Positions 8,999 to 61,236 of a stretch of DNA of 64,000 nt are shown one piece after another (the first letter of the stretch is position 1; the number at the start of each line of letters is the position of its first letter). The position numbers were made by a program, and so were the translations under genes. Under the pieces are notes generated by a model. It did no database searches and had not been told where the DNA came from. It saw nothing but the letters and a program-made list of their open reading frames with translations. Source of the stretch: a virus; IMG/VR virus record IMGVR_UViG_3300017989_000002. One strand, written 5' to 3'.

Positions 8999-11900
8999 TC
9001 AGTACTGGCCGCGCCAGTCCTTGACCTTGCCCTTGGTCTTGCCGAATTCGGAGCCCACCGCCAGCCCTGGGAGGGGATGGAAGCCGTGGATGTTGGACCG
9101 CCAGCCCTCGCGGAACGCCTGGGTCAGCGAAGACCCCAGGTCCTCGAAGTTGAGGCGGGCCAGCCAATCCTCCTTGAGCTCCTTCGGCAGCAGCTTGACA
9201 CCCTTCACCTGGGGCTCGTGAGCCACCGACTTCTTCCCTGCCCGGGCGGCCTTGCGGTTCCACGCGTTGACCTTGGTCACGGGGCGGATGTCGCCGGGCA
9301 CCCAGTCCGGGTGGTCTCCAGGGTCCTCGACGCGGGTGATGTCGGTCATGGCCTTGACCACGACCTCGATGTTGCGCCGCTTCACCGGGGCTGCCTTCTT
9401 GAGCACGCCCTGGATCTGGTCGGTCACGTAGTCCTGCATCTGGTGCAGGCCCCGTAGGTTCAGCACGTCTCGCGGGTTCTGGGGCCCCGTGGAGAGCGCG
9501 GTGCCGCGGGCCACACGCTGGCCCTTCTTCACCTTCAGGTCCTGCCCAGGAGGCACCCACAGCGTGGCGTCGCCCATGTAGACGTTGTGCCCGCCTCGGT
9601 CGGCCTTCTTCACGTCCTTCACCGTCCCCGACTGTGGGGCGAGCGGCGCCGTGAACGGCAGGTTCGTGTTGAGGGTGAGCAGCTCCTCGAGGCGCTTGAA
9701 GGTGCCCATCGAGTCGGAGCCGCGGCCCTTGGCCAGCCCGCCCTGGTGGAAGACGTTGAGGGACAGCTGGGTGCTGGGCTCTCCGACAGCCTGAGAGGCG
9801 ACGACGCCGAGGTTGTCTCCGATGTCGTAGGGACGCCCGTTCTCGGACAGGCCCATGCACTTCTTGCAGATCCCGTCCTCGGACTGGCACCTCGTCGGGG
9901 AGCGGACCTCGATCGCGCCCTTCCGGCCCTTCTTCGCGGCGGCCAGGAGGTGCGGCGTCACGACGGAGCCGCGGCGGTAGGTCTTGCCTCCGACGCGGAG
10001 GGGCTTGGCCAGGTAGCGGTCCAGGGCGTCGTGGTCGTCGACCGAGAGCTTCGTCCCGTCGCCCGTGCCGCAGTCGTCCTCCGTGACGAGCTGGTCCACG
10101 GTGCTGTTGATCATGAGGCGGGTCATGTAGCCTGGCATGGCCACGCCCTGCGTCTTCTGTAGGGTGCCCTTGCGCGCGCCGGCGAGCGTGACCCAGTACG
10201 CACTAGTGTCCAGGCCCTCCGAGTACGAGCTCGGCACCAGGAAGGGCACGACCTCGTCCTTGGCGTTCTTCACGAGCCCAGGCGTCGAGATGATCTGCTT
10301 GAGCTGCTCCGGCTTGCCTCGCGAGCCCGACGTCACCATCTGGTAGATGTTGGTCGGGTCCGCCTTCAGCTTCTGGGTCGTCAAGGCGTCGATGCGGTCG
10401 GTCGCCTTGTCCAAGATCGACAGGACCTCAGCGGACTTGCGCTTCCTGCCCTGCCGCAAGAGTGCGTCGACTTCCCGGTTCGACTCCCCGATGATCCGGT
10501 CCCGCTTGGCCTTGTTCACGACCCGGAAGTCGTCCAGGCCGATGGAGAAGGCCTCCTTGTACGAGTGCTCGTTCCCGAGCATCGTCAGGGCGTTGGTGAC
10601 CTTGCCGTAGTCCTGCTCGTGCTCCCGTCCGAGGCGGGACAGGAGTCCCTTCATCCTCTTGGCGTCGAGCACCGTCATGTCCTTGACCTTCCGCTTCCCC
10701 GTCTCGCGGTACTGCGCGGGGAGGACGGACTCGACGCGAAGGCGGCCCAGCGTCGTCTCCGCGCCACCGACGCGCACGATGTCGTCGAGGTTCAGGTTGC
10801 CCGTCCGGAACGCCTTCTCGGCCTCGGCCTGCGTCTTGAAGGTCTTCGAGGTCTTCTTCCCCGGCTTCGTCATCAGGTACAGGCCGAGCAGCGCCTCGTG
10901 CCCCGGGGTGTGCATGATCGCGCCGGTCGTCGGGCTGAAGAGGTTCTTCGAGGGGAACATCTTGGTGGCTTCGCGAGCCGCCTGGTCCGAGATGGGGACG
11001 TAGACCGACATGGCATCGCCGTCGAAGTCGGCGTTGAAGCCTCCCACGGCCAGGGGGTGCATCTCCAGCGCCGAGCCCTTCACGAGCCTGGGCCGGAACG
11101 CCTGGACGTTGAACTTGTGGAGGGCGGGGTCGCGCTTGAACAGGACCGGGCGCTGGCTCATCGCTCGCTCGAGGGCGTGGCGCGACCTGTCCGACTTCTT
11201 GGCGTACTCCTCCTCGGCGTCGAGGTAGCCCATGCCCTCCCGGACGAGCTCGCGCTCGGCGAAGGGCTGGTAGAGCGTCCACGCGATCTTCTCGGGGATT
11301 CCCAGCTCGTCGAGGTCCTGGCCGGGCTCCACCGTGATGGTCGACCGAGCACTGAAGTCCTGCCGCTTGCGCAGCATGTTCTTGCGGAAGAACCCCTCCT
11401 TCGAGCGGCCCCCGTCGCTGCCGTCGCTGCGCCGCACCTTGCCGGTGATGAGGTCGATGATGCCCTTGTAGCTGTCGTCCTGGCTCGACCGCGCGCGCCG
11501 ACTGATGTTGCCGCCGACGCCAGACAAGGCCTTCACCCCGTCGTAGACGCCCTTGCGGATGGGAGCCATGGACACGTAGTCCATGTGCACGTCCTTGAGC
11601 TTCTGGAGGCCCTCGGCCGTGAACGCGACGTCCTTGTACAGGAAGTTGAGGTCGTTGGTCATGAGCCGGCCGTCGGCCTGGGGCGTGACCGGGCGGAAGC
11701 GTGGCGGGAGGACCGGCACCGACCGCATCATGTAGACCGACGGGTCGAGGCCTCCCTCGTTGAGCGCGCGCACGATCCGGTAGCGCTTGTACGCCTTGTC
11801 CCGAGTCGCACCGGGCTTGAGGGACGACAGCCGCTCCTTGAGGCGCTTCTCCTCGGCCTTCACGTCGATGCCGGAGAGCATCTCCTCGATGGCTTCACCG

Positions 11901-14900
11901 CCGCGCTTGCCGTTGACCTGCGTCTCGCCGCTCACCAACTTGTTGAACTTGGCCTGGTTGATGCCCAGGAGCTTCTTGATGGCGTCCTCGAAGACCGGGT
12001 TCGGGATGGCCTCGGGAAGCTCGAACCGCGACCAGCGGTCGCCGTCGACGCCGCCGGTGATCTCGGGGTCGAACAGGCCGCCCCGGATCGGCTCCGCCGT
12101 GGTGGAGTGGAGCACGAGGCCTGGCTGTGGAAGCGCCTTGGGAGCCAGGGCCTTCACCTGGTCCTCGGTGAAGGGCATGAGCTGGAGGCTGTTGCCGTTG
12201 CGCCGCACGTTGACTCGCACGCCGTTGAGCATGCTGAGGAACTTCTCGTACACGAAGGGCGCCTTCGGGGGAGGCAGGGGCGTTCCTTCCCGAAGGGCGT
12301 CCCACAGAGCCGTGTTCCGCTCGCCCTTGTACGCCTGCATCTCGTGCAGGTTCTCCCGCGCGCCGTGCGCCAGGAGGGCGTAGGTGCCCAGCTCGCCCAG
12401 GGACTGCCCGCCGTGGGGAGCTCCGGAGCTGGGGGCGTGGTTGATGTCGTAGGGGGAGGTGCTGCCGCCCGATGCCGTGCGGCCCGACCCAGAGCCAGAG
12501 CGCGCGCTCACCTTCTTGTCGACCTGGTGGCGCAGCTTGTAGAAGTACTGCTGGCCGACGGCGGCGCGCTGGCGGAACGGCTTCTCCGTCTCAGGGTCGA
12601 ACAGGACCTCCTTGCCGTCCTCGGAGAACCCAGCGGCGCCAAGGTCCTTGGCCACCTGCGCCGTGTAGTCCGAGATCTCGGGATCGAAGTTCTTGACCTT
12701 GTAGACCTGACCCTTCCTGGCCGCGACCTTGCCCGCCGCCGTCTCCTGGACCTGACCGAGGTTGATGCGGCCTGGGATCCCCATCGGGTTCAAGGCGATG
12801 TCGAGGACCTTCTTCTCCCCGTCCTCTTCGACGTAGGGCATCTGAGAGTCGGTCATGATGCGGGTGATGACGCCCTTGTTGCCGTGACGCCCCACGAGCT
12901 TGTCGCCGACCTTGGCGGGCTCGGCCGTGCGGACGTGCACGACGACGCGCTCGACTCCTCGCTCCTTGAGCCGCTGAATGCGGACGACCTCGCCTTCGAC
13001 GTCCTTATCCCAGGTGATGGCACCGGAGACGAAGCGACGGGAGTTCCTCCGGCCTCGCTTCGGACGACCCGGGCGCGCGTCCGTGGGGTCGTGAAGCGCC
13101 AGCAGGAGAGGGTCCCCCTTCGACACACGTGCCCCGACCTTGACCACGCCGTCGTCCTGCACGTTCTCCAGCTGCCCCTTGTTGAACAGGGCTGGGTAGG
13201 AGTTGACGAACTTGCGCCGGTCGACCTGGGAGCTCTTGCCAAGGGTCGTCTCGGGCTTGTGGACGTGCTCGGAGGTGAGCTTGCCCGCCGCCGTCTCCGA
13301 GATGACGATGCCGTCCTCGAAGTTGTAGCCCTTGAGAGGCAGGTACCCGGTGCGGAGGTTGGTGCCGAGGGCCAGGACGCCATCGCGGGTGAAGGTGGTG
13401 TCGGCTACCACGTCCCCGGCCTTCACGGCGTCTCCTGCCTTGACCTTGACCTCCGAGTCGTAGAGCGAATTCGCCTTCGACCCGAAGTTGCGGAATAGGG
13501 CGACCTTGTGGCTCTTGCCTCCCGCGTCCTTGATGACCACGGCGTCCTTCTGGACCTGGGTCACGGTGCCGGCGACCGGGCTGGTTCGAGCCACTCGCTT
13601 GCCGAGCTCCTCCTCGAAGGTCTTGCCCGAGTCCGACAGTACCTGGACCAGAGGGGCTTCCCTGTGCTTGAGCGGCACCGCCTGCTCGGCCTGGCGGGAG
13701 GCCGTCATGGTGCGGTTGCCCTGGTCCGAGGACAGGAAGGGGATGAGGTTCGACGTGATGCCGAACATCTCCCGGGGAGAGGGCATGATGTAGTCGACGC
13801 TGCGAGGAGCGACGTCGGTGATCTCGCCGTCCTTCTGGACCAGGACGCGCTTCTTGCGCGCCACCCGCTTCCGGCCCGACTCCCGGTACTCGTCCGGGAA
13901 GGCCACGGACTTGCCTTGGAGCTGGGTCGGGTCGAGCCAGACCGTCTTGCCGGTCTTCGCGTCGATGAACCGGGACTCGAGCTTCCGCCCCTTCTTGCGC
14001 GTGCCCAGGGGGATGGAGAGCGTGATGCCCAAGCGGGGGCCCTCCGGCGTGTGCACGGGGTCGAGGAACCCGAGCTGGCTCGGGTCGATCATCTTCGCCT
14101 CGTCGGAGACGACGTGCTCCGACCGGATGCCTCCGTGAGGGCCCATGAGCGTCGTGCGGCGCGAGGCCGACAGCGCCTGCAGCGGGTTGATGAGCTCGGT
14201 CTGGTTCGCCAGGGAGGTCGAGAAGAAGCTGTTGAAGGGACGCTGCAGCGCCTCGCTGGGCATCATGGCCCGCACGCCGCCCTTCTCCTTCCGGGCCATC
14301 GCCGACTTCACCCGGCGCTGGATGGCCTTCTTGCTCTTCCGGAGCTGGTCACCGAACAGCTCCGGGGCTCCCGCGATGCGCTGGAACTCCATCGCCTCCT
14401 GGTTGTCCTCCGGGTCTCCCTTCACGATGCCGACCAGCTTCTTGGCACTCTGCAGCAGGACGTCGGGCGTGACCTCCTTGGCGTCCATGCCCAACGTCCG
14501 GCGCGTCGTCTCGGGGTAGAGCTCCGTCTCGGCCAGCTTCTCCTTGAGCACGGACTCCGTCTCGTCGACCTTCACCCCGAGCCACCGCGCCAGTCGAGCA
14601 CGGGACTTCTTGGGCTGGGACGCCTTGAGGCTCGAGGACCACACGCTCTCGGGCAGCACGGCCTTGATCTTCGAGTCGTCGGTTCCTGCCATGCGGAGGA
14701 AGTCCACGAGCGGGATCTTCGACGTCCCCCGCATGACCGCCACTTCCGACGTCGCGGGGTCGTACTGGACCTTCATCCGCCGGCCCGCGAACTGGCTGCG
14801 GTTCGCGAGGTTGAAGTCGGCTACCGCATCGCCGCTCTCGCGCATGCGGTGGTAGACACCGGACTTTCGCGTGAACAGGTTGGAGATGTGGTACTCGTTG

Positions 14901-15202
14901 CCGTTGTAGATGTACGAGCCCCTCTCGGTCATCCGAGGGAGGTCCATCACCTTGAGCCGGCGGCGCGACACGTCCTTGCCATTGCGCGACAGGACCACGT
15001 CGGCCTCGACAGGCACTGCCCACGTCTTCCCGTTGTCGATGGCGTCCGACTGGGCCGTCACGTCGTCGGGGTTCTTGGTGTCGCGGACCGCGACGTTCTC
15101 GAGGCGGATGCTGTCCCGGCCGTTCTCGACGGGGAACACCTCGGTCAGCGCCTCGGCGACCTCACGCTTCACGCTCTCGAAGCTGTCGACTGGGTTGGAC
15201 AC
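8999..15202 (-). CDS. rpoBC: Single-chain fused beta-beta' DNA-directed RNA polymerase
   Basis: Beta motifs GYNFEDG, GDKLVGRHGNKG, LNPMGIPGRINLGQ, YKLRHQVDKK and GGQSLGELG are followed in frame by beta' motifs GLFDPEITG, VPVLPPRFRP, KEGFFRKNMLRKRQDFSARSTI, NADFDGD (11015-11035), SGSRG, GARKG, RSPTRC..ICKKC and GEPSTQLSLNVFH. GTG start with AGGAGG. Confidence 0.97.
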   Translation of the reverse strand: MSNPVDSFESVKREVAEALTEVFPVENGRDSIRLENVAVRDTKNPDDVTAQSDAIDNGKTWAVPVEADVVLSRNGKDVSRRRLKVMDLPRMTERGSYIYNGNEYHISNLFTRKSGVYHRMRESGDAVADFNLANRSQFAGRRMKVQYDPATSEVAVMRGTSKIPLVDFLRMAGTDDSKIKAVLPESVWSSSLKASQPKKSRARLARWLGVKVDETESVLKEKLAETELYPETTRRTLGMDAKEVTPDVLLQSAKKLVGIVKGDPEDNQEAMEFQRIAGAPELFGDQLRKSKKAIQRRVKSAMARKEKGGVRAMMPSEALQRPFNSFFSTSLANQTELINPLQALSASRRTTLMGPHGGIRSEHVVSDEAKMIDPSQLGFLDPVHTPEGPRLGITLSIPLGTRKKGRKLESRFIDAKTGKTVWLDPTQLQGKSVAFPDEYRESGRKRVARKKRVLVQKDGEITDVAPRSVDYIMPSPREMFGITSNLIPFLSSDQGNRTMTASRQAEQAVPLKHREAPLVQVLSDSGKTFEEELGKRVARTSPVAGTVTQVQKDAVVIKDAGGKSHKVALFRNFGSKANSLYDSEVKVKAGDAVKAGDVVADTTFTRDGVLALGTNLRTGYLPLKGYNFEDGIVISETAAGKLTSEHVHKPETTLGKSSQVDRRKFVNSYPALFNKGQLENVQDDGVVKVGARVSKGDPLLLALHDPTDARPGRPKRGRRNSRRFVSGAITWDKDVEGEVVRIQRLKERGVERVVVHVRTAEPAKVGDKLVGRHGNKGVITRIMTDSQMPYVEEDGEKKVLDIALNPMGIPGRINLGQVQETAAGKVAARKGQVYKVKNFDPEISDYTAQVAKDLGAAGFSEDGKEVLFDPETEKPFRQRAAVGQQYFYKLRHQVDKKVSARSGSGSGRTASGGSTSPYDINHAPSSGAPHGGQSLGELGTYALLAHGARENLHEMQAYKGERNTALWDALREGTPLPPPKAPFVYEKFLSMLNGVRVNVRRNGNSLQLMPFTEDQVKALAPKALPQPGLVLHSTTAEPIRGGLFDPEITGGVDGDRWSRFELPEAIPNPVFEDAIKKLLGINQAKFNKLVSGETQVNGKRGGEAIEEMLSGIDVKAEEKRLKERLSSLKPGATRDKAYKRYRIVRALNEGGLDPSVYMMRSVPVLPPRFRPVTPQADGRLMTNDLNFLYKDVAFTAEGLQKLKDVHMDYVSMAPIRKGVYDGVKALSGVGGNISRRARSSQDDSYKGIIDLITGKVRRSDGSDGGRSKEGFFRKNMLRKRQDFSARSTITVEPGQDLDELGIPEKIAWTLYQPFAERELVREGMGYLDAEEEYAKKSDRSRHALERAMSQRPVLFKRDPALHKFNVQAFRPRLVKGSALEMHPLAVGGFNADFDGDAMSVYVPISDQAAREATKMFPSKNLFSPTTGAIMHTPGHEALLGLYLMTKPGKKTSKTFKTQAEAEKAFRTGNLNLDDIVRVGGAETTLGRLRVESVLPAQYRETGKRKVKDMTVLDAKRMKGLLSRLGREHEQDYGKVTNALTMLGNEHSYKEAFSIGLDDFRVVNKAKRDRIIGESNREVDALLRQGRKRKSAEVLSILDKATDRIDALTTQKLKADPTNIYQMVTSGSRGKPEQLKQIISTPGLVKNAKDEVVPFLVPSSYSEGLDTSAYWVTLAGARKGTLQKTQGVAMPGYMTRLMINSTVDQLVTEDDCGTGDGTKLSVDDHDALDRYLAKPLRVGGKTYRRGSVVTPHLLAAAKKGRKGAIEVRSPTRCQSEDGICKKCMGLSENGRPYDIGDNLGVVASQAVGEPSTQLSLNVFHQGGLAKGRGSDSMGTFKRLEELLTLNTNLPFTAPLAPQSGTVKDVKKADRGGHNVYMGDATLWVPPGQDLKVKKGQRVARGTALSTGPQNPRDVLNLRGLHQMQDYVTDQIQGVLKKAAPVKRRNIEVVVKAMTDITRVEDPGDHPDWVPGDIRPVTKVNAWNRKAARAGKKSVAHEPQVKGVKLLPKELKEDWLARLNFEDLGSSLTQAFREGWRSNIHGFHPLPGLAVGSEFGKTKGKVKDWRGQY

Positions 15203-15219
15203 TCATCCCCTCCTGGGCT

Positions 15220-15232
15220 TCTACCCTAGCGC
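15220..15232 (-). promoter_or_regulatory. Candidate -10 element GCGCTAGGGTAGA upstream of the RNAP gene
   Basis: 12/13 identical to GCGATAGGGTAGA at 56576-56588; both are followed by a CAGGAGGGG RBS. Confidence 0.55.
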
Positions 15233-15243
15233 GAGGAGGGCAC

Positions 15244-17151
15244 TCAGACCGCCCCAGCGCGACGTGGGGGCCTCTGGGAAGGCATCGGCCGCATGTCGAC
15301 GACAGCCCCGCCGCCGGACCCCTCTTGCCCTGAAGAGATCATGCCGTCGCCCACTCCCGGGAGATCCTCGTCGGTCGTGCCTTGGTGGGGCGCCTCTGGC
15401 GTGGGGTACGACGCCAAGACGTGGCGCACGCGGCGAGCCATCTCGGGCATCTTCTCGTTCATGCTGGCGAGCACCTGCTCTCGCTTCGCCGGATCGAGCT
15501 GGGCCAGGCGGTAGGCCCAGCCTTCGGCGAGGTCCAGCACGTTGACCTGCCGGTTCGACACGTCATCCTGCACGGGAGGCTCTGCGGCGGCCTGCGCTCG
15601 CGCCTGCTGCCGCATCTGGACCTCGGCCTGGACGTCGGCCTGGGCCTCGACCTGCATCTTCTGCATGGCCAGCTTCTGGCGGAGCTCGTGGCGGATCATC
15701 CGCTGCTCGTCGTCGTAGTCCTTGTCGAACTCGGTGAGCAGCGACTTCGCGCTCAGGTCGCCCATCGTCTTGAGCTGCATCAGCAGCTGCTTGGCCTGCA
15801 CGTCGTCCGCCATCCGGAACTGCTTCATGTGGACCTTGACGGGGCTCCACTTCATGAACATCGAGATGACGGGGATGACGAAGTGCTGCAGGAAGCGGTG
15901 CTGCATGTCCCGGTCGGCCAGGAACATGTTCTCCAGCATGCGGATCGACACGCTCGACCCCGACCAGGTGAGCCCTCCGAAGACGAACTCCTGGGGCACG
16001 TTCATCCCGACCAGGACGTGCTCCGACATCGCCCGGATCTCTTGCGTCAGCATGAGGGACTTGCCCGTGCCTCCGATGCGCTGGTGACCGAGAGGGAGGC
16101 TCATGACGGGCTTGTGGTTCGGGTCCTTGCGCCAGAAGGCGAGCTGCTGCTCGGTGTCCTTCTGCCACTGCCCCAGGTTGGTGTGGACGTAGGGGTCCGC
16201 GTTGGGGCTGGAGGAGGCCGGGAAGAACACGTCGAGGGGCAGCATGTGCTCGAGCAGCACGGCCTCGTTCGCCTTCTTCATGATCTGCAGGTGGTAGCTG
16301 TCCTTCATCGCAGCCAGGATGGGAGGCAGGCCCCAGCCCCGGGCCGACTTCGTGGACGGCGACGGCGCCGCGAAGTGGAACAGGTTGGCGTCCACCAGGC
16401 GGACGGACCTGTTGAGCCTCACCGCCTCGAGGAAGGCCTGCGGCATGTCCGCGATGAACCAGGGGTCCTTCTGACGGATCTTGGCCGCGACGTCGGCGGG
16501 GACCTTGTAGGTGTACCGCTTGTTGGTCGTCACGGGGTTGAAGTCGATGTCGACCTGCTCGGGCTCCCACCGGACGATGCGGATGTCCTTGTGGGAGCGA
16601 ATGGGCTTGTCGAAGGCGCGCGCGCGGCCCGTGTGCCCACAGGAGGGACAAGTCAGGTGGAAGCGGAAGCCCTTGAAGTCCCAGTCCTTCTTGAACTTCA
16701 GCCGCTTGACCCGGTGACTCTCCTTGCAGTGCGAACACTGCAGCATCTTGAGGAAGGGCAGGTAGATCGAGGCGAAGGCGTTGCCGTAGGTGTAGTAGTC
16801 GATGGCCAGCTCGACCTGGACCTTCTGGATGTTCAGCACCCGGTGGAGGAGGTCTTCCCACCGCTGGACGTGGCGGTCGAAGCCCTCCTCTTCGTTGGCG
16901 TCGACCTGGACCTTGGTGACGGGGTAGGCCGCCATCTTCCGGACGCCGGATGAGATGAGCGGGTTCGTCGTGGCGTGGTAGGCCAGGCGCTTGAACAGCT
17001 GCTTGATGTTCTTCGGCAGGTCCATCGAAGCGATGTCCCACCACGGGCTCGGGTACCGGCTGGACTGGTTGCGGTGGTCCAGCGAGCCGTGCTTGAACGA
17101 GCCTGTGAGAGGGGCACCGGAGGTCCCTGCGCTGGACGAGAAGCTACCCAT
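15244..17151 (-). CDS. Portal protein with Zn-ribbon insertion
   Basis: YYTYGNAFAS and WGLPPILAAM resemble the HK97-type portal GNA and G-x-S/P-P motifs. CSHC...CPSC insertion and a Gln-rich coiled-coil C-terminus. Confidence 0.7.
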   Translation of the reverse strand: MGSFSSSAGTSGAPLTGSFKHGSLDHRNQSSRYPSPWWDIASMDLPKNIKQLFKRLAYHATTNPLISSGVRKMAAYPVTKVQVDANEEEGFDRHVQRWEDLLHRVLNIQKVQVELAIDYYTYGNAFASIYLPFLKMLQCSHCKESHRVKRLKFKKDWDFKGFRFHLTCPSCGHTGRARAFDKPIRSHKDIRIVRWEPEQVDIDFNPVTTNKRYTYKVPADVAAKIRQKDPWFIADMPQAFLEAVRLNRSVRLVDANLFHFAAPSPSTKSARGWGLPPILAAMKDSYHLQIMKKANEAVLLEHMLPLDVFFPASSSPNADPYVHTNLGQWQKDTEQQLAFWRKDPNHKPVMSLPLGHQRIGGTGKSLMLTQEIRAMSEHVLVGMNVPQEFVFGGLTWSGSSVSIRMLENMFLADRDMQHRFLQHFVIPVISMFMKWSPVKVHMKQFRMADDVQAKQLLMQLKTMGDLSAKSLLTEFDKDYDDEQRMIRHELRQKLAMQKMQVEAQADVQAEVQMRQQARAQAAAEPPVQDDVSNRQVNVLDLAEGWAYRLAQLDPAKREQVLASMNEKMPEMARRVRHVLASYPTPEAPHQGTTDEDLPGVGDGMISSGQEGSGGGAVVDMRPMPSQRPPRRAGAV

Positions 17152-18906: not shown

Positions 18907-18935
18907 GAAGGAGGTGGGCACAATCGTCGCATAAG
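18907..18935 (+). promoter_or_regulatory. Candidate sigma28-like promoter of the replication operon (GAAG-N16-TCGCATAA)
   Basis: CGTCGCATAAG at 18925-18935 is identical to 56613-56623 and lies in the divergent intergenic region. Confidence 0.6.
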
Positions 18936-18977
18936 TAACACGTAGGCAGGCATTTCCGCGCTTGCCAGGAGGTGTGC

Positions 18978-19352
18978 ATGGGGAAGAACTTGTGGGAGGA
19001 GCTCGAAGCCAAGTCCGGCGGCGGGTCTCCTTCCTGGGGAACGAAGAAGGGGTCAAGCCCTTCGTACCGGGCGCCGACCGCCCCGTCGAGCAGCCGAGAA
19101 GCCGTCGTGGGCCGGAAGACCGACCCCGCGAAGACGGCGACCGGCGACCCGACGGACCGGCCGTACGCCTACGTCCAGAACCGACCAGACGGAACCATCG
19201 AGGAGTGGAGACCTCCGACGTTCTGGCAGATCGCGGCCGACATGGGCCTGCGAGCACTCGAGGCCGCGCTCGTCGGAGCGTTCTCCGAGCTGGCGCTGTA
19301 CTTCACTCGTCGCCGGTTCGTGCCCAAGCACCACTGGGACCGGCCGCAGTGA
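18978..19352 (+). CDS. Hypothetical protein
   Basis: ATG with AGGAGG RBS; first gene of the plus-strand operon. Confidence 0.7.
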   Translation: MGKNLWEELEAKSGGGSPSWGTKKGSSPSYRAPTAPSSSREAVVGRKTDPAKTATGDPTDRPYAYVQNRPDGTIEEWRPPTFWQIAADMGLRALEAALVGAFSELALYFTRRRFVPKHHWDRPQ

Positions 19353-21138: not shown

Positions 21139-21148
21139 GGAGGACCCC

Positions 21149-23160: not shown

Positions 23161-23176
23161 ACGCTCCGAGGCCCTC

Positions 23177-24529: not shown

Positions 24530-25644
24530 GTGAACCGCTCGAACTGTACCGTCCGTACGTCGAGAACATCCAGGAGAGCGGCGACACCCACTACCGAGGC
24601 ACCTGCCCTTGCCCACGCAAGAGCAAGCGCTCCTTCCACTTCCACAAGGACACGGGGTACTACGGCTGCTGGTCGTGCGATGACCACGGCTCGCTGTACA
24701 AGTTCCTCACGTCCAAGGGCATGGACGTCGGCCGAGCGAAGAGCATCTCGCAGGAGGTCCGCGACAGCGCGCCCTCCGAGGTGATCCAGCTCAAGCGCAA
24801 GCAGGCCGCGGCAGTGGCCCGGAACGACATCCTCCCCGACTACGTGCTGGCCGAGTTCCACAACTGCCCGGTGGCGCTGCTCGAAGCAGGGTTCCCTGAG
24901 CAGCTGCTCGAGCGGTACGACGTCGGGTTCGACGTGGCGCGGCAGCGCATCACGTTCGGGATCCGGGACAAGGAGGGGAACCTGGTGGGGGTCAGTGGAC
25001 GTGCCGCCCTCGCCGACCAGGTGCCCAAGTACAAGGTGTACGACGCCAGGCCAGCGGAGCCTCACAGGAACAGGCCGGAGGGGGCGCTGAGGCAGTACAA
25101 GGAGGACTACGTCCCCCGCAACAAGGCGCACCTGTACGGGGCTCATACGTTCTGGGGACTTCGGTCGCATAAGAGGCTGGACGGAGAGGTTCCGATTCCT
25201 GTCGTCATCACGGAGGGGTACAAGTCGACCCTCTGGATGCGGCACCTGGACTTCCAGTACTCGGTCGGCCTTCAAGGCTCGCTCATGACGCGCGAGCAGA
25301 TGGCCGTCCTCCTGGAGCTCGGGGGTCCCTTCGTTGTCCTGCTCGACTACGAGCCGGGGAAGCAGTTCCCCGACCCCGACCAGATGAAGAAGAGGGCGAA
25401 GCTGCTCCTGAACAAGCAGTTCCGGGAAGCGGACAGAACCCGTCCATGTGACGCAGTACAGATTGCTCTGTGGCTGCAGCGCAAGGGAGCGTCCGCCCTC
25501 ATCGGCAAGTACCCGCCCGACAGTCCCGTCGGCACCGCACCAGACGACCTGGCCAAGGACCAGCTCACCTACGCAATCGAGAACGCAGCAACACCCACCA
25601 GCGTCGTCCTTGACGGCGCACGACACGCGAGAACAGGAGGCTGA
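24526..25644 (+). CDS. DnaG-like primase (Zn finger plus TOPRIM)
   Basis: GTCPC...SFHF...GCWSCDDHG, RITFGIRDKEGNLVGVSGR, HLYG, VITEGYK, LLDYE, PDDL. Confidence 0.85.
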   Translation: MSEPLELYRPYVENIQESGDTHYRGTCPCPRKSKRSFHFHKDTGYYGCWSCDDHGSLYKFLTSKGMDVGRAKSISQEVRDSAPSEVIQLKRKQAAAVARNDILPDYVLAEFHNCPVALLEAGFPEQLLERYDVGFDVARQRITFGIRDKEGNLVGVSGRAALADQVPKYKVYDARPAEPHRNRPEGALRQYKEDYVPRNKAHLYGAHTFWGLRSHKRLDGEVPIPVVITEGYKSTLWMRHLDFQYSVGLQGSLMTREQMAVLLELGGPFVVLLDYEPGKQFPDPDQMKKRAKLLLNKQFREADRTRPCDAVQIALWLQRKGASALIGKYPPDSPVGTAPDDLAKDQLTYAIENAATPTSVVLDGARHARTGG

Positions 25645-25645
25645 G

Positions 25646-26869: not shown

Positions 26870-26887
26870 CCCGCCTCCCTTCATCTC

Positions 26888-26916
26888 GGCGGCCGGGGAC
26901 ACTCTCCCCGGCCGCC
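26888..26916 (+). terminator. Perfect 12-bp hairpin (attenuator or mRNA stabiliser) after the putative SSB
   Basis: GGCGGCCGGGGA-cactc-TCCCCGGCCGCC; no U-tract. Confidence 0.6.
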
Positions 26917-26930
26917 CCAGGAGCGACCTC

Positions 26931-36084: not shown

Positions 36085-36139
36085 CGACCCCGTCTCCCGT
36101 TCAGGGGGGCGGGGTCGTCCCGGCCGGCCCTTCTTCGCT
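36085..36139 (+). terminator. Hairpin plus CTTCTTCGCT end signal of the replication operon
   Basis: CGACCCCGTCTCCC-gttca-GGGGGGCGGGGTCG (the G-U pairs work only on the + strand), then 12 nt, then CTTCTTCGCT. Confidence 0.65.
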
Positions 36140-49174: not shown

Positions 49175-49205
49175 GAGACGACCCTCCTGCGCGTTAGGCT
49201 ACCGC

Positions 49206-49427
49206 ATGAACGATAACCGCCCGAGGGGTACCGGCGCCCGCCTACTGGACGTCGGCACTGTACTGAAGCTGGTGGAAGGACGCCAGGGCTTCACCGAAGC
49301 GCGCACCTGTCCTTCCTGCGAGAGGCACCTGTCCCCCCACCCCACCGTGCGTCAGGGAGTGAAGTGGCGGTGCCCGTGGTGCGATGAGGAGACTCCCTCC
49401 GAGGGTCACTCCGAGACCGAGATGTAG
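49206..49427 (+). CDS. Small Zn-ribbon protein (opposite strand, inside the tail module)
   Basis: CPSC...WRCPWC; fills the intergenic gap and overlaps the end of the baseplate J gene by 22 nt. Confidence 0.5.
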   Translation: MNDNRPRGTGARLLDVGTVLKLVEGRQGFTEARTCPSCERHLSPHPTVRQGVKWRCPWCDEETPSEGHSETEM

Positions 49428-52006
49428 TCCGCGTCGGGCAGGAAGTTGTGCGCCTCGTCGGAACCTACCTCCGTCTCACTGGCCTGCAGGGAGATCGACC
49501 TGTCGTCGTTGTGGCGAAGGACGAGGAGGGGGAGGGGCAGCACGGTGTACGTGGCTCCGGAGGCCGACAAGACGTCCACCAGGTCGCTGCCCTGGAGGGG
49601 GTCGCCCGACGACAGGCCGAGAAGATGCTGCTCGAGGTCGCTCTGCCCCTGCTCCGGAGCGTCCGACACGATGTCCAGCCGGACGTAGGAGGGCAGGAAG
49701 TGGCGTAGGAGGAGGTCTTCGCCTACGGGCGCGTTCTCGTCGTCCTCCACGAACTCCTGCGCCTCAGCGATGTAGGCCGCCGAGGCGTAGGTGATGCGGA
49801 CCGCGAACGACGCCTCGTCGTCGATCAGGTACGTGTCGTCGTCGGGCCATGCCGAGAACGACAGGTAGGGCGTGTCCCTCGACGAGAAGGACTCGTGCTG
49901 CGAGGGCGACCGAAGCTGCCACCCATCAGCCGAGATACCTTCCAAGTCGAGGTAGACCCCCCGGTCGAGGTTGCCTCCGGCGCCGACGGCTGTCGCCTCG
50001 ACGTGGAGGTCGATGTAGGCCAGGCCGTTCGAGTCCACGAGGGCGTCCCCGCTGAGGACCCCCGGGCAGATGACCACGTCCTCGAAGGCGGGCGTCGCGG
50101 CAGCGAACCAGTCGCCCCCCTCCTCACGCACGGTGAGGTGGGTGTTGCCTCCGGTCTCGGCGACGTTGGTGATGGCGTAGGTGCCCAGGAACGCGCTACC
50201 CAAGAGCCTGTCGCCTGCCTGGATGCGGTCGGCGTACTCGCCGGACACCACGATGCGGAGGGTCCCGCCTCCGACGTCCTGCACCTGGGCTGTCACGTTG
50301 ACGTAGCCGCGCGTCTCCTCGACCGCGTCGTAGTCCTTGACGGCGTAGGACCAGGAGCCCAGGGTGAAGCGCGCGTCCGGCGTCGCGTAGGCCGAGCACG
50401 GGTCCAAGAAGTAGACGCGCACCACACCCGCTGCCTTGGAGGCGGCGCCTCCCCCCTCGAGGTCTTCCACGACACGGCAACCCACCGCCCGGGCGTGAGG
50501 GAACACGATGCCGGTCGGTGCGAGGGTCGTCGAGTTGAGCAGCTCGATCTGCCGGATGCGCAGAAGCGGGAGCGGCACGTTCGAGCGGGCGATGTTGGAG
50601 GAGGCGAGGACCGAGACCCCGCCCTCGACCAGAGGCTCCTTGCTCGAAGACCCGGGGAGTGCGGCGAGCGGCTCGTCGTCGCTCGAGAAGGCGGCCTCCC
50701 CCTCGACCTCACCGACCAGGTCGTAGAGGGGGATGGACATGCGCTCGCTGTCGCGTCGCGTGATCTCGTAGGTGCGCGAGTACATGCCGCCGGGCAGGGG
50801 GTCCCCGGAGAGGTCGAGGGAGTAGGCGCCGACCGTGGAGATCTGCCGCTCCTCGCTGCCCACCCGCAGCCAGTCTCCTGCCTTCACGCCGTTGACGACG
50901 TAGTTGCCGGTGGCGTCCTCCCACAGGCTGGTGTCGGGGCCGCCGGCGGTGAACCCGCGGTCCGACCGCCACACGCGGTACCCCACGTCACGGAGGTCCT
51001 TGATGTCCAGCGAAGACAGGACGGGCTCCCCGCGGCGCAGGTAGACGTCGGTGTGGCCTCCGAGGTGCAGGGACTGCCCTCCCGTGAGGTCTGGGCTCGT
51101 CTTCCCCCGCACACCCCCCGGGATGCCGGACAAGGAGGTGGGTCCCCGCAGAAGGTCGCGCTGCATGAGGGGGTGCCCGGAGTCGACGACCCGGAGGTCG
51201 TCGTAGGTGCCCAGGGACTCGGGCAACGTCACTCGGACGCCTCGCGTCGTCGTCAGGGTGCGCTGCGTGATGGAGTCCTGCGCGCGCTCGACGCCCTCGG
51301 CCTTCGTCTCGTCGTCCTGCACGACCTCGGCCGAGACGAGGTTGGTGACGCGCACCACGCCCGCGATGCCGTCGACGCCGATGATGGCGCCCGCCTCGAC
51401 GACGTACTCGCTGCCTGCTCCGTCGGCACGCACGGTCACGTCGACGAAGTACTGCCCGTTCTCGACCTGGAAGGACATCTCGGCCTGAGAGATGGACTGC
51501 GTGGTCGTCGGGTAGAAGCTCAGCCCGCCTCCGGTGAAGAAGCGCGTCGAGGGCGTGAAGGTCCGGGACTGCGCGGCGGAGAAGTAGACGCGGACGGGGA
51601 GCTGCACCGTCCCACCGTCCCGCAGCGTGATGAAGAAGTCCGAGAGGCGGGCACTCAGCTCGGCCCTCGTCATCAACTCGTAGTCCTCGAGCGCGCGCGT
51701 TGCGCGATTCTCGCTCGCCTCCCTGCGCCACGCCTTCACCACCACGGCCAGGGGCCGGATGAGGAGCTGCCGAAGGTCGGAGACAGGGCTGGTGTCGAGC
51801 TCGTCCCCGAACTCCGCATCCAGGACCGCGGCCACGAACTCCTCGGCATCCCCCGACAGGGGGTCCGGCCCGACGCGTGTCAGGAGCGGCCTCATGACCG
51901 AGGAGTAGAAGGCCGAGTCGCGCCCGGTGTCGATGTCGGGGTCGTAGGACGCCATGAGCTCACGGAACAGCGTGAGCAGCGTGTCGTCGATGAGGTTGAT
52001 CGCCAT
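49406..52006 (-). CDS. Baseplate J-like protein
   Basis: LLIRP, VRVYFS, FFTGGGLSF, VRADGAGSEY, RVTN....DETK...R..SITQR, GGHTDVY. Confidence 0.85.
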   Translation of the reverse strand: MAINLIDDTLLTLFRELMASYDPDIDTGRDSAFYSSVMRPLLTRVGPDPLSGDAEEFVAAVLDAEFGDELDTSPVSDLRQLLIRPLAVVVKAWRREASENRATRALEDYELMTRAELSARLSDFFITLRDGGTVQLPVRVYFSAAQSRTFTPSTRFFTGGGLSFYPTTTQSISQAEMSFQVENGQYFVDVTVRADGAGSEYVVEAGAIIGVDGIAGVVRVTNLVSAEVVQDDETKAEGVERAQDSITQRTLTTTRGVRVTLPESLGTYDDLRVVDSGHPLMQRDLLRGPTSLSGIPGGVRGKTSPDLTGGQSLHLGGHTDVYLRRGEPVLSSLDIKDLRDVGYRVWRSDRGFTAGGPDTSLWEDATGNYVVNGVKAGDWLRVGSEERQISTVGAYSLDLSGDPLPGGMYSRTYEITRRDSERMSIPLYDLVGEVEGEAAFSSDDEPLAALPGSSSKEPLVEGGVSVLASSNIARSNVPLPLLRIRQIELLNSTTLAPTGIVFPHARAVGCRVVEDLEGGGAASKAAGVVRVYFLDPCSAYATPDARFTLGSWSYAVKDYDAVEETRGYVNVTAQVQDVGGGTLRIVVSGEYADRIQAGDRLLGSAFLGTYAITNVAETGGNTHLTVREEGGDWFAAATPAFEDVVICPGVLSGDALVDSNGLAYIDLHVEATAVGAGGNLDRGVYLDLEGISADGWQLRSPSQHESFSSRDTPYLSFSAWPDDDTYLIDDEASFAVRITYASAAYIAEAQEFVEDDENAPVGEDLLLRHFLPSYVRLDIVSDAPEQGQSDLEQHLLGLSSGDPLQGSDLVDVLSASGATYTVLPLPLLVLRHNDDRSISLQASETEVGSDEAHNFLPDADYISVSE

Positions 52007-56575: not shown

Positions 56576-56588
56576 TCTACCCTATCGC
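56576..56588 (-). promoter_or_regulatory. Candidate -10 element GCGATAGGGTAGA
   Basis: Matches 15220-15232. Confidence 0.55.
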
Positions 56589-56594: not shown

Positions 56595-56623
56595 TGAAAC
56601 CGTGCCCTGCGGCGTCGCATAAG
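56595..56623 (+). promoter_or_regulatory. Candidate sigma28-like promoter TGAAA-N13-CGTCGCATAAG
   Basis: Same spacing as 58165-58193; -10 box identical to 18925-18935. Confidence 0.65.
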
Positions 56624-56630
56624 GGCTTGG

Positions 56631-56770
56631 TGGAGAGGGCCCCTCGGCGTCCCCCACCGAGCGGCAGGAGGTTGGTCTCTCTGCCCTCCGAGGTTCTCCA
56701 TTGACCGCGGCCCTGGAGGCCCGAGCGCGCAGCTCGGGCCTCCAGGTGTCGCACCTCGTGCTTCTTCGCT
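56631..56770 (+). ncRNA. Candidate structured small RNA
   Basis: Bounded by the plus-strand promoter motif and the hairpin+CTTCTTCGCT signal. TGGAGAG/TTCTCCA closing stem and inner GGCAG/CTGCC hairpin; no convincing ORF. Confidence 0.45.
56712..56770 (+). terminator. Perfect 15-bp hairpin plus CTTCTTCGCT
   Basis: CCTGGAGGCCCGAGC-gcgca-GCTCGGGCCTCCAGG, 14 nt, CTTCTTCGCT. Confidence 0.7.
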
Positions 56771-58129: not shown

Positions 58130-58164
58130 GGGCAGACCTCCGTCGGGATACTAGCGTGGGAGGA

Positions 58165-58193
58165 TGAAATCCGCGAGACGAGCGGCGCACAAG
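58165..58193 (+). promoter_or_regulatory. Candidate sigma28-like promoter TGAAA-N13-CGGCGCACAAG
   Basis: Same spacing as 56595-56623; the downstream AGCTTG also resembles GGCTTG. Confidence 0.55.
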
Positions 58194-58216
58194 AGCTTGA
58201 GACCCAAGGAGGTTCC

Positions 58217-58915
58217 ATGCGTACCCTGACCATCATCATCCCGGCCGTCCTGCTCACCGGGTGCCTCGCCTCTCGAGGTACCGTCACCGTCGAGGACACC
58301 GGCCCCGAGGCCGCGGACACCTCGGAGGACATCGTCGACACCGGAGGGGCGGACACAGGCCTGCCTGAGGACAGCGACGAGGTCGAGCCGTGGATCATCA
58401 CGGGCGACCTGACCATCGAGAACAGCCGCGACCTCGAAGGCCTGGAGGGGCTCGCCGCAATCAACGGAGACCTGACCGTCCGCAACGTGGACTCCCTCCC
58501 CACGTTGGCAGATCTCCGTCAGGTCCGTGGCATGGTCGCGTTCGAGTTCACGCGCCTGCGGGACCTCGACGACCTGTCCAGCCTCGAGGACGTCGAAGGA
58601 CTGCGCTTCCGCTCGAACGATGACCTGGAGGACATCAGCGGCCTCGACGGCCTGCTGTCCCTCGGCCGCGTCGAGATGACGGACAACGACTCGCTCGAGG
58701 CGTTCTCCGCGGCAGTGCCGGGCCACCTGGACGTCCTCTTGGTGGTCGACAACGATGCTCTACGAGACCTCGGGACGCTGGAGGGCCTCGTCTCCGCCAC
58801 CGACATCCTGGTGACGGACAACGTCGGCCTCTGCCAGACCTACGCGTTCACCGCGTTGGCGGGACTCGCCGACGGCTTCTACGTCATCGAGGACAACGAG
58901 GGCGCCTGCCCTTGA
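58217..58915 (+). CDS. Lipoprotein with receptor L-domain/LRR-like repeats
   Basis: MRTLTIIIPAVLLTGC lipobox, DTG-rich linker, ITGDLTIEN / LEGLAAINGDLTV / N..L..L..L repeats; AAGGAGG RBS. Confidence 0.85.
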   Translation: MRTLTIIIPAVLLTGCLASRGTVTVEDTGPEAADTSEDIVDTGGADTGLPEDSDEVEPWIITGDLTIENSRDLEGLEGLAAINGDLTVRNVDSLPTLADLRQVRGMVAFEFTRLRDLDDLSSLEDVEGLRFRSNDDLEDISGLDGLLSLGRVEMTDNDSLEAFSAAVPGHLDVLLVVDNDALRDLGTLEGLVSATDILVTDNVGLCQTYAFTALAGLADGFYVIEDNEGACP

Positions 58916-58921
58916 GGACGA

Positions 58922-58973
58922 GCGCCGGCAGCAACGTGCTGCCGGCGCCTGAGCCTACGTCGCCTTCTTCGCT
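58922..58973 (+). terminator. Perfect 12-bp hairpin plus CTTCTTCGCT
   Basis: GCGCCGGCAGCA-acg-TGCTGCCGGCGC, 15 nt, CTTCTTCGCT. Confidence 0.7.
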
Positions 58974-60245: not shown

Positions 60246-60451
60246 CAGGAGCTCAAGACCTCGTTGAGGAGGGCAGACGCATCATCTGCTGCTACCTCTA
60301 CCACGTCTGGAACGACCTGCTGGGTGCCCAGCTTGATGCGGCGCAGCGCGTCCGCATCGGCCTCCACCTCCGCGACCCGGGCCACGCGGTACTCCTCCAG
60401 GGCAGCGACGGTGTCCTGCATCTGCGCGGTGGTCTCGGGAGACAGCGGCAT
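60245..60451 (-). CDS. Small helical protein coupled to the sigma gene
   Basis: MPLSPETTAQ; TGATG overlaps on both sides. Confidence 0.6.
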   Translation of the reverse strand: MPLSPETTAQMQDTVAALEEYRVARVAEVEADADALRRIKLGTQQVVPDVVEVAADDASALLNEVLSS

Positions 60452-61236
60452 CACATCCCCCGGCGCTTCATGCGCTCGTCGATCTTGCCCTGGATGCTGT
60501 TCCGGATGCGCGACACCGTGGGCGCGCTCACGCCCATCTTCTTCGCCGTCTGCGTGCCGTTGAGCTGGGGGCGCCCGTACATGCCGTGCTGGTACTCGAA
60601 GACGGTGCGCTCCCGCGGAGAGAGGTCCTGGTAGATGTACCGCATGATCTCGCGCTGGGTTCCGGAGCGCATGTCCTCGAGCTTGTCCGGCTCGGTGGCC
60701 GCCAAGGACTCGATGTGGTCGGCCCGGTTCACGTCGATGCGCATCTTGTCCACGTGAGAGGGGGTCCACTGGTTGGTGGCTCGAAGCCTGCCGGCCTCCG
60801 CGAGGCTGGTGTTCATCCTCTCGGCGATGGTCTGCGTGTCGGGCTCGTGGCCGAGCTCCTCCTCGAGCCCGGAGACGACCTCTCGGAACAGGCCGATCTG
60901 CCTGCTGCGCCGGTAGGGGATGCGCCCGATGTTGGCGTGCTTCGACACGTCGGAGTGCACGCCCTGGAGGTACTTGTAGACCCACGACTTCAGCTGGGTG
61001 TTGTGTCCAGGCTTGTAGGTCTGCAGGCCCTTCATGGCGTGGTGGTGCGCCGCCGCCAGAACCGCGGGCTCCGGGACCGGGCTGGTGCTGTACTTCGACA
61101 CCCGCTGATGGATGAGAGGCCTGATCTGCTCCATGAGCGGGATCAGCTTCTCCTCCGTGGGATCTTCTTTCCACGCCTGCCAGAGCTCGAGGTCTCGCTG
61201 GGCCTGCTGGAGCTTCTCCTTGCGGGACCACGCCAT
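60451..61236 (-). CDS. Sigma-70 family group-3 (FliA/WhiG/SigF-like) sigma factor
   Basis: Region 2 (PLIHQRVSKY...KGLQTYKP..TQLKSWV), RIP motif, region 3 (LEEELGHEPDTQTIAERM), region 4 (LSPRERTVF..HGMYG...QTAKKMGVSAPTVSRI). Confidence 0.88.
   Translation of the reverse strand: MAWSRKEKLQQAQRDLELWQAWKEDPTEEKLIPLMEQIRPLIHQRVSKYSTSPVPEPAVLAAAHHHAMKGLQTYKPGHNTQLKSWVYKYLQGVHSDVSKHANIGRIPYRRSRQIGLFREVVSGLEEELGHEPDTQTIAERMNTSLAEAGRLRATNQWTPSHVDKMRIDVNRADHIESLAATEPDKLEDMRSGTQREIMRYIYQDLSPRERTVFEYQHGMYGRPQLNGTQTAKKMGVSAPTVSRIRNSIQGKIDERMKRRGM

Follow-up and report, generated by a model that had tools for sequence, protein, structure and literature searches.

A predicted single-chain beta-beta' RNA polymerase and a divergent sigma70-family factor in a high-GC phage of the Arash-like lineage: a candidate alpha-less holoenzyme

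The stretch of DNA analyzed here, 64,000 nucleotides of IMG/VR virus record IMGVR_UViG_3300017989_000002 (the window), belongs to an uncultured tailed phage and carries predicted genes for a bacterial-type RNA polymerase (RNAP) core, with beta and beta' in one polypeptide, and for a very divergent sigma70-family factor. This combination of single-chain core and sigma runs through the phage's lineage, and we file it as a new variant among phage multisubunit-type RNAP systems. The genome also has two classes of promoter-like signal, a phage-specific one (class A) predicted to head early or middle operons and another (class B) that stands ahead of virion operons and of the RNAP gene itself. We hold the gene identities and both signal classes with high confidence. 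In the model that we favor, to which we give a probability of roughly 55%, the polymerase and sigma factor would be made late in infection, packaged and injected as a holoenzyme, and would then read class A promoters. A first-pass annotation of the window had proposed such a self-contained system; its observations were confirmed as a whole, and its interpretation is partly supported. The three genes around which the argument turns are as follows.

8999..15202, minus strand: single-chain beta-beta' RNAP core, 2,067 amino acids in one open frame (P0001; Pfam, PDB alignments)
15244..17151, minus strand: portal protein homolog (BLASTP, E 5e-91 to portal gp204 of Salmonella phage Arash)
60451..61236, minus strand: divergent sigma70-family factor with sigma2-sigma3-sigma4 architecture, 261 amino acids (P0002; profile, NCBIfam, structural model, Foldseek), ortholog of Arash Gp10

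A bacterial-type RNAP core in one polypeptide

The first-pass annotation had described a fused rpoBC beside the portal gene, and the 2,067-residue frame bears this out. Its Pfam domains run Rpb2_3, Rpb2_6 and then Rpb1_1 to Rpb1_5, with Rpb2_6 at 1e-57 and Rpb1_2 at 6e-25. The beta half, residues 16–999, aligns nearly end to end with bacterial beta (E 8e-86) and is collinear with T. thermophilus beta (16–999 with 45–922+; 239–999 with 392–1156); archaeal and eukaryotic enzymes match this half at only ~1e-23. For the beta' half, the match to bacterial beta' begins near residue 170 and continues to the end (E 2e-108; 1095–2041 with 170–1132). The translation holds NADFDGD of beta' and GDKLVGRHGNKG, the lysine-rich GxKxxxRHGNKG motif of beta, both invariant in 22 homologs. 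The second Zn site (C1711/C1772/C1779/C1782) is intact and likewise invariant in the 22. The N-terminal Zn ribbon of beta', with its four cysteines, is absent: residues 1000–1160 contain no cysteine, and the PDB alignments start only at beta' residue ~160–175. On these alignments, the predicted product of 8999-15202 is a bacterial-type, multisubunit-like RNAP core with beta followed by beta' in one polypeptide.

A word-seeded search returned 857 relatives of this RNAP, and the best 120 of the 857 are mostly ~2,050–2,100 amino acids long, on contigs of at most 215 kb. PHROGs of the phiKZ type match it weakly (~1e-19); the stronger matches, at 1e-85 and 1e-114, are to two PHROGs of unknown function. 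In Arash and in Vibrio phages D69, D148 and D181 the polymerase gene is split within beta', with homing endonucleases and other genes between the pieces; the beta-beta' junction is still fused. Some of the best 120 of the 857 homologs also have inteins or LAGLIDADG inserts (P0083, P0085-P0087, P0099, P0105, P0113), making the polymerase gene a hotspot for selfish elements (inteins, LAGLIDADG inserts and homing endonucleases). Neither Pfam nor PHROGs matched the portal gene. Its position, with the RNAP gene directly following, is common to the window phage and Arash.

A very divergent three-domain sigma factor

Pfam recognized only region 4 in the product of 60451-61236, below threshold. A profile built from nine close homologs matched sigma factors in the PDB over residues 68–257, with RpoS at 1e-9, SigA at 1e-6 and FliA at 8e-4. 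Among NCBIfam models SigB/F/G ranks best, with the ECF superfamily and FliA/WhiG next; each of these scores is well short of its cut-off. The first-pass label had been a FliA-like sigma of group 3; "group 3-like" is a fair label, and a specific likeness to FliA found no support, with 34 bits against a cut-off of 189.6 for the FliA/WhiG model TIGR02479 and a higher score for SigB/F/G. An AlphaFold model computed with 53 homologs is all-helical with a predicted local distance difference test score (pLDDT) of 90.9, and Foldseek placed it with sigmaA, sigmaS and sigmaB in holoenzymes at a probability of 1.0. Taken with its predicted fold, the protein is a true, very divergent three-domain member of the sigma70 family.

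Of the two sigmas of Arash, Gp10 is the ortholog of the phage sigma (E 2e-18); gp196, the second one, is not. A full HMMER scan with the sigma returned 151 cluster representatives at E < 1e-30. Seven of 14 relatives have, at another locus, a second sigma factor with canonical region 2; in Arash it is gp196. Reading of 118.8 kb of the phage's own genome (the window plus 55 kb beyond it on the 174.6-kb contig ena:ERZ27256770:k141_711587) turned up no such second sigma.

Within a virion (baseplate/tail) operon, ATGA overlaps couple the sigma gene translationally to the genes that follow it. On the phage's own contig an SNF2 helicase precedes the sigma gene and structural genes come after it, all of them in one co-directional run. 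This SNF2-family helicase (SNF2-rel_dom + Helicase_C; L095:5053-6744) lies on the sigma's strand ~4 kb past the window end. In Arash a helicase, gp217, comes after the beta' piece and was detected in particles too. The SNF2-family helicase may serve the phage RNAP as a partner of the RapA kind.

Sigma and core occur together, and relatives lack recognizable alpha and omega

A sigma profile found the gene in all three records searched (Arash, Vibrio D69 and a 133-kb IMG/VR contig). Similarly, among 20 RNAP-bearing contigs of 100 kb or more, 16 have the sigma, as do 7 of the 8 contigs in this set that are at least 90% complete. Of the co-occurrence on related contigs for which the first-pass annotation had asked, the part that concerns RNAP and sigma was thus found. 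Alpha (PF01000, PF01193) and omega (PF01192, Rpb6/omega) were each found in 0/3 of Arash, Vibrio D69 and the IMG/VR contig, and alpha (PF01000, RNA_pol_A_bac) in 0/20 of the large RNAP contigs; control genomes in the alpha and omega searches were positive in 14 of 14 cases. Among the window genes scanned with Pfam there was no alpha or omega family match, in agreement with the earlier remark that no alpha gene is visible in the window. The phage core may use host alpha, or its scaffold may be too divergent to recognize.

We modeled RNAP residues 1000–1420 in complex with the sigma. The pair scored 0.75 against 0.00 for the best control, a mark that 58 of 80 solved complexes attain, as do 2 of 110 mismatched pairs; the runs agree in at least 60% of contacts, and partner pLDDT is at least 70. 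Sigma residues 26–72 sit on RNAP 1186–1222, the counterpart of the beta' clamp helices. A structure prediction of RNAP with sigma had been suggested as a check, and this one returned the canonical interface; because bacterial holoenzymes have already been solved, the score may reflect memory of them and shows compatibility of the interface, not binding of this particular pair. The model thus shows, as a likeness, that a canonical sigma2 to clamp-helix interface is compatible with these two proteins. A remodeled docking surface on the clamp helices had been considered and was not borne out by the complex model. Overall, we think it likely that the phage sigma pairs with the phage core.

A promoter-like signal ahead of early and middle operons

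Class A is represented in the window by three exact copies and one variant.

18926..18942, plus strand: class A element GTCGCATAAGTAACACG (copy at 18928) in a divergent intergenic region, heading the plus-strand unit 18978-36069
25164..25173, plus strand: class A copy (25166) inside the 3' part of the primase open reading frame (ORF), upstream of 25448-26869
56614..56623, plus strand: class A copy (56616), an exact match, back-to-back with a class B box
58184..58948, plus strand: variant class A GGCGCACAAG / GGCGCACAAGagcTTGAGA at 58184, then the gene 58217-58915 and a 12-bp hairpin at 58922-58948, with CTTCTTCGC at 58964

The sequence CGCATAAG occurs three times in the window, always on the plus strand, against 0.3 copies expected, and all three share the 10-mer GTCGCATAAG. 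Two of the three lie in divergent intergenic regions, in DNA where non-coding sequence is rare. Across the 118.8 kb there are 11 exact copies, each co-oriented with its downstream genes, and 9 of the 11 lie 17–49 nt ahead of a Shine-Dalgarno sequence and start codon. Two copies, at 98515 (minus strand) and 98553 (plus strand), stand back-to-back and head two divergent operons. The extended consensus reads gtCGCATAAGg.cTTGGAGg. The start motif that the first-pass annotation had seen shared among the plus-strand units is thus conserved, and across the genome it stands at the head of early and middle operons. Its division of the two signals by strand did not survive: a minus-strand class A copy outside the window heads a minus-strand early operon, and it is the class of the operon, together with direction, that decides.

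The 17-mer GTCGCATAAGTAACACG is identical in relatives whose RNAPs are 70% and 81% identical, while the flanks have diverged. At 56.6 kb the block CTTATGCGAC is identical in relative L101 and has one change (CTTATGCGCC) in L102, two relatives in which the neighboring protein is ~60% identical; the adjacent GGCTTGGTGGA is kept too. The exact 17-mer had no match in IMG/VR. When up to two mismatches were allowed, the motif gave 32 matches against 33 expected and was not enriched, and many coding 10-mers recur at least three times in this codon-biased DNA. Raw copy number is therefore weak evidence, and it is position, orientation and conservation that carry the argument. A generic sigma70 promoter and terminator scan of the window was uninformative. 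Sigma28 (FliA) promoters have the form TAAA-N15-GCCGATAA; TAAA is not conserved 15 nt upstream of the class A motif, which has only the ATAA core in common with that form.

Genes behind class A copies encode an HTH (helix-turn-helix) protein, the replication module, ThyX-like, dNMP-kinase, Gad2-domain and HD proteins, and runs of small ORFs, and are predicted to be of early or middle type. The copy at 108881 is followed first by a gene (L107:9105-9845; ~108.9–109.7 kb in window coordinates) with a Gad2 (anti-Gabija) domain, which supports class A operons as carriers of early, anti-defense genes. On this evidence the genome has a phage-specific, promoter-like class ahead of early and middle operons.

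A second signal ahead of virion operons and the RNAP gene

Class B boxes in the window are the following.

15223..15231, minus strand: class B box CGCTAGGGT in the 41-bp gap ahead of the RNAP gene, followed by AGGAGG
49196..49204, minus strand: class B box CGGTAGCCT, 7 nt ahead of the Shine-Dalgarno sequence of 47168-49174
56579..56587, minus strand: class B box CGATAGGGT before the 1,299-residue gene 52659-56558
58148..58156, minus strand: class B box CGCTAGTAT before 57407-58129

The TAGNNT-type box that the first-pass annotation had reported on minus-strand operons was recovered, with TA(G/C)NNT ending 18–22 nt before the start codon in four of five minus-operon leaders. A tighter form, CGnTAGnnT with an AGGAGG Shine-Dalgarno sequence 6–9 nt later, is found at five sites, four in the window and one outside. 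At the sites at 56.58 and 58.15 kb, (G/A)TTTCA lies 10–11 nt upstream of TAGnnT. The block GCGTGCGATAGGGTAG with the 56.58-kb box is invariant in two relatives (~60% identical protein). The box ahead of the RNAP gene is kept as CGCTAGAGT in a relative whose RNAP is 81% identical (L009) and is degenerate in one at 70% (L010). The RNAP gene bears the signal of the baseplate and tail operons, and this late-type box, together with the virion operon context, fits late synthesis of the polymerase. Indeed, the earlier placement of both the RNAP and sigma genes in minus-strand virion operons stands, given the conserved box of the one and the ATGA coupling of the other. We conclude that the genome has two promoter-like classes, with class B predicted ahead of virion operons and the RNAP gene.

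The class A core and the sigma are shared across very different hosts

The lineage comprises more than 540 IMG/VR contigs with such an RNAP gene, including complete 178–198 kb genomes with terminal repeats, and its genomes are mostly slightly below the 200-kb "jumbo" limit. In culture it is represented by distant members, Salmonella phage Arash and Vibrio phages D69, D148 and D181. Local tblastn against Arash found homologs of the portal, two structural proteins, PolA, RNAP and sigma. The window phage is a new high-GC member of this Arash-like lineage.

Counts of intergenic 8-mers placed GGTATAAG and ATAAGTAA at the top in Arash, GTTATAAG (15 of 19 copies intergenic) and ATAAGTAA at the top in Vibrio D69, and GGTATAAG second in the complete IMG/VR genome G017. 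Whole-genome 9-mer counts in G017 and Vibrio D69 showed no motif; it appeared when intergenic sequence alone was counted. In Arash the 10-mer GGTATAAGTA is among the most over-represented, with 16 copies, and comparison with the annotation tables placed nearly all of them 11–60 nt upstream of an early-region gene or tRNA, in the same orientation. The forms are TGGTATAAGTAA / TGGTATAAG in Arash, GTTATAAG in Vibrio D69 and GTCGCATAAG in the window phage. Phages of the lineage that infect Salmonella, Vibrio and a high-GC marine host thus have in common a core (C/T)ATAAG and a Gp10-type sigma. The final G of (C/T)ATAAG falls at the position of the best-conserved T in the housekeeping -10 element. 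We infer that a phage factor reads class A and that the host sigmas, which differ among these phages, do not, and the shared core together with the shared sigma is the best argument for it. Arash also has a ~150-bp inverted-repeat element in five copies (~26.6, 66.4, 100.2, 138.5 and 173.3 kb; GGTTACAACGTTTG ... CAAACGTTGTAACC, with TTTTTCTAAAAA at the center), which has no relation to the promoter motif.

Polymerase and sigma in Arash particles

Published liquid chromatography-mass spectrometry of Arash virions provides a view of both proteins in a cultured relative (PMC10585845). The RNAP piece Gp206 is the most detected protein, with 3,516 spectra, the second piece, Gp216, has 1,210, and the sigma Gp10 has 467 with 100% coverage. 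From these counts we computed spectra per residue of ~2.3 for Gp206, ~2.0 for Gp216 and ~2.0 for Gp10, next to 4.3 for the major capsid protein. The values are compatible with a ~1:1:1 RNAP-sigma complex. In the window phage, the place of the RNAP gene beside the portal gene and its late-type box would fit packaging as well. With these data we regard packaging of the holoenzyme in the virion as somewhat probable.

A proposed packaged holoenzyme and its alternatives

In the model we favor, RNAP and sigma would be made late in infection and, joined by the usual contact of sigma2 with the clamp helices, would constitute a holoenzyme of two polypeptides without alpha. This complex would be packaged into the capsid, be injected along with the DNA, and then initiate at class A promoters independently of host polymerase. 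Late class B promoters would be served either by host RNAP or by this core paired with a second phage sigma; the second canonical sigma found in about half of the relatives could take the place of host RNAP there. That the holoenzyme reads class A is, of the model's parts, the one for which we put the chances at even. A bolder version, in which a minimal alpha-less holoenzyme of single-chain beta-beta' and phage sigma runs the lineage's entire gene program, with one sigma packaged beside the core for early (C/T)ATAAG promoters and a second sigma or sigma-independent initiation acting late, we put forward tentatively and with some doubt.

Several points weigh against the favored model. Save for its last base, the TGnTATAAG form of Arash and Vibrio D69 is like an extended -10 element of the host, and host RNAP could act there. 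No link ties the phage sigma to class A over class B, its best NCBIfam match is SigB/F/G, and the (G/A)TTTCA at the 56.58- and 58.15-kb class B sites loosely recalls sigmaB/F promoters. The Arash preparation contained 116 proteins, including primase (932 spectra), ligase and ribonucleotide reductase, and the authors of that study themselves allow for carry-over (PMC10585845). Carry-over is thus possible in the Arash particles, and the window phage is known from sequence alone. An alpha-like scaffold of great divergence would slip past the Pfam models. Finally, our reading covers 118.8 kb of the genome, and ~56 kb lie outside it.

Some of these points would suit a reversal of roles, in which phage RNAP and sigma form a late transcriptase on class B, class A is served by host RNAP or another phage factor, and presence in the virion is incidental. 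The sigma gene lies within a late operon, SigB/F/G is its best NCBIfam match, the (G/A)TTTCA upstream of TAGnnT is loosely like GTTT-N-GGGTAT, and the Arash preparation is rich in non-structural proteins. We nevertheless consider this unlikely. The last G of (C/T)ATAAG, where sigma70 prefers T, is kept together with the sigma ortholog across very different hosts; the second sigma with canonical region 2 in half of the relatives would suit TAnnnT boxes better; and in Arash particles RNAP and Gp10 rank with the most abundant proteins.

A still less probable arrangement is that the sigma redirects host core, like T4 gp55 and SPO1 gp28/gp34, while beta-beta' acts without sigma or with an unrecognized factor. 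This is the textbook role of phage sigmas, and reviews describe sigma-encoding phages without RNAP and RNAP-encoding phages without sigma (PMC7598289, PMC7824862, PMC13282480). In this lineage, however, sigma and single-chain RNAP co-occur, the sigma2 to clamp-helix contact is modeled confidently with the phage enzyme (with the caveat of memory), and the two proteins have similar normalized abundance in Arash particles.

That the CGCATAAG block is an operator for a phage regulator (the HTH_31 protein is the candidate) and not a promoter is very improbable: an HTH_31 gene does lie just downstream of the first class A copy, and the 56.6-kb block sits ~30 nt upstream of an opposite-strand class B box, a frequent activator position, but the motif is non-palindromic, 11 of 11 copies are co-oriented and 9 lie 17–49 nt from a start codon, including the divergent pair, and the corresponding Arash and Vibrio D69 motif is built like a -10 element.

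Comparison with known systems

The closest described system is Arash itself (OQ632216; PMC10585845), which has a homologous RNAP (gp206/gp216, ~30% identity) with portal gp204 directly upstream, the orthologous sigma Gp10 heading the baseplate module (E 2e-18), no alpha or omega, and an intergenic ATAAG-type motif before early genes. It differs, as do the Vibrio phages, in a polymerase split inside beta', whereas that of the window phage is one chain in a 67% GC genome. The Arash paper is descriptive and has no analysis of promoters, alpha absence or sigma-RNAP pairing (PMC10585845). It was the only paper on a single-chain phage beta-beta' with sigma that we found, in a literature search of incomplete coverage. 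Two further candidates were set aside as instances of this system: the "moraphage" lineage lacks RNAP (PMC12619734), and PaBG has sigma only (PMC7412058).

phiKZ and AR9 also encode two-barrel RNAPs without alpha or omega, and one of their enzyme sets is packaged and transcribes early genes. Their enzymes, in contrast, consist of four to five polypeptides in two paralogous sets, with gp68/gp226 and no sigma70 homolog (PMC7598289, PMC13282480). The window phage has one gene, far nearer to bacterial beta/beta' (E 1e-86 to 1e-108), and a true sigma70-family partner. The single-chain form occurs in it and in hundreds of relatives, in place of the split polypeptides that mark the phiKZ/AR9 type.

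The proposed logic is that of phage N4, whose polymerase is made late, packaged and injected and uses phage-specific early promoters. The N4 virion RNAP is a T7-like single-subunit enzyme that reads hairpin promoters, whereas the window phage has a core of bacterial type, accompanied by a sigma and a linear, -10-like motif. With a bacterial holoenzyme containing a group 3 sigma, the phage proteins have in common the catalytic motifs, the domain order, the modeled sigma2 to clamp-helix contact and a fusion order of beta then beta'. Natural beta-beta' fusions are present in Helicobacter and Wolbachia. The phage core differs from the bacterial one in being ~680 residues shorter than E. coli beta plus beta' and in lacking the N-terminal Zn ribbon of beta'; moreover, relatives encode neither alpha2 nor omega, and the phage sigma falls under every curated subfamily cut-off. 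T4 (gp55) and SPO1 (gp28/gp33-34) likewise encode sigma70-family proteins with a promoter class of their own, but these phages encode no RNAP, whereas the sigma of this lineage co-occurs with a phage core.

Reviews from 2020, 2021 and 2026 portray two groups of large phages: those that encode an RNAP (phiKZ, AR9), whose split enzymes come with no homologs of alpha, omega or sigma, and those that encode a sigma, which lack RNAP and presumably use host core (PMC7598289, PMC7824862, PMC13282480). The lineage bridges this dichotomy of split, sigma-less RNAPs and host-core sigmas, having core and sigma, one chain, and no recognized alpha or omega. If the favored model holds, it would be a new case of early transcription independent of the host, would offer a two-protein bacterial-type holoenzyme for structural and mechanistic work (assembly without alpha; G read where sigma70 reads T-7), and would give synthetic biology an orthogonal set of sigma, core and promoter. 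Were the bolder version true as well, this would be the first sigma70-dependent viral RNAP and the smallest known bacterial-type holoenzyme, and would break the accepted rule that phages encode either RNAP or sigma, never both. The cultured Salmonella and Vibrio relatives make the model directly testable, and the lineage is common in aquatic metagenomes.

Layout of the window and unit ends

The source phage has a ~175-kb genome of 67% GC and is known from marine sediment and seawater metagenomes; the public runs containing window DNA are sediment and seawater metagenomes, with no RNA runs among them. The window is likewise 67% GC and nearly all coding. Spurious ORFs were sorted out by a frame plot of GC content at third codon positions (GC3), which left four parts, the last of them a single plus-strand gene and, behind it, a minus-strand block from 58972 to the window end.

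1-18894, minus strand: minus-strand block (GC3 frame plot)
18978-36069, plus strand: plus-strand block (GC3 frame plot), an early/middle unit with a small protein, HTH_31 protein, SF2 helicase, UDG, DnaB-like ATPase, DnaG primase, PolA, RecA and unknowns (Pfam)
36101-58129, minus strand: minus-strand block (GC3 frame plot)
58217-58915, plus strand: single plus-strand gene (GC3 frame plot)
49406..52006, minus strand: baseplate wedge (gp6/Baseplate_J-like) protein, phrog_6 at 1e-8, homolog of the Arash structural protein gp13, marking the virion block

The plus-strand block 18978-36069 is the predicted replication module, and the minus-strand blocks hold predicted virion genes, those of a highly divergent phage. 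On ~30 virion-block genes PHROGs gave no match beyond phrog_6 and phrog_5417. The gp6-like protein hints at a contractile tail. No tRNA genes were found in the 64-kb window, megablast of 22 kb against deposited phages gave zero matches, and RecA was uninformative as a host indicator, with 50–56% identity to many phyla.

Window coordinates equal those of the contig plus 2,804, and the window begins, with 1-2803, ahead of the contig's first base. There is also a second assembly, of 174,750 nt, and the assemblies look circularly permuted or terminally redundant.

Hairpins mark the ends of units in the window; that of the single plus-strand gene is listed with its variant class A element above.

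26888..26916, plus strand: 12-bp perfect hairpin between the co-directional replication-module genes 25448-26869 and 26931-28130, without CTTCTTCGC
36085..36138, between convergent units: 14-bp near-perfect hairpin at 36085-36117, with CTTCTTCGC at 36130
56629..56750, plus strand: folded candidate transcript without an ORF, with a 15-bp hairpin at 56712-56746 and then CTTCTTCGC at 56761

The three longest perfect hairpins of the window, and the near-perfect one at 36085-36117, are all located at gene ends. CTTCTTCGC follows three of the four GC-rich unit-end hairpins by 13–16 nt (36130, 56761 and 58964). The end signal that the first-pass annotation had called shared therefore applies to three unit ends, and the fourth hairpin, 26888-26916, is without it. 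On the other strand CTTCTTCGC reads GCGAAGAAG and directly follows the stop codons of genes that converge on it; at 56.7 kb it is unchanged in the relatives. None of the four hairpins is followed by a U-tract. The 56.7-kb stem is maintained by compensatory changes in relatives. Unit-end hairpins probably terminate transcription, perhaps in both directions. The hairpin at 26888-26916 bounds a one-gene unit, 25448-26869 (of unknown function), behind the class A copy embedded in the primase gene.

The candidate small RNA of 56629-56750 (plus strand) has a folding z of -5.3 and matched no Rfam family. A small ORF in this 56.6-kb unit was ruled out, as relatives have indels that are not multiples of three. 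Its AGGGCCCCTC equals the plus-strand sequence at the ribosome-binding site and start of the 1,299-residue gene (56558-567), a 10-nt complementarity that, judged by eye, is not kept in L101 or L102. Lastly, two genes downstream of the RNAP gene, 6822-8360 (minus strand) encodes a 512-residue protein with a weak match to the C-terminal trimerization domain of T4 gp5 (E 4e-4, under cut-off), and it may be a protein of a cell-puncturing device.

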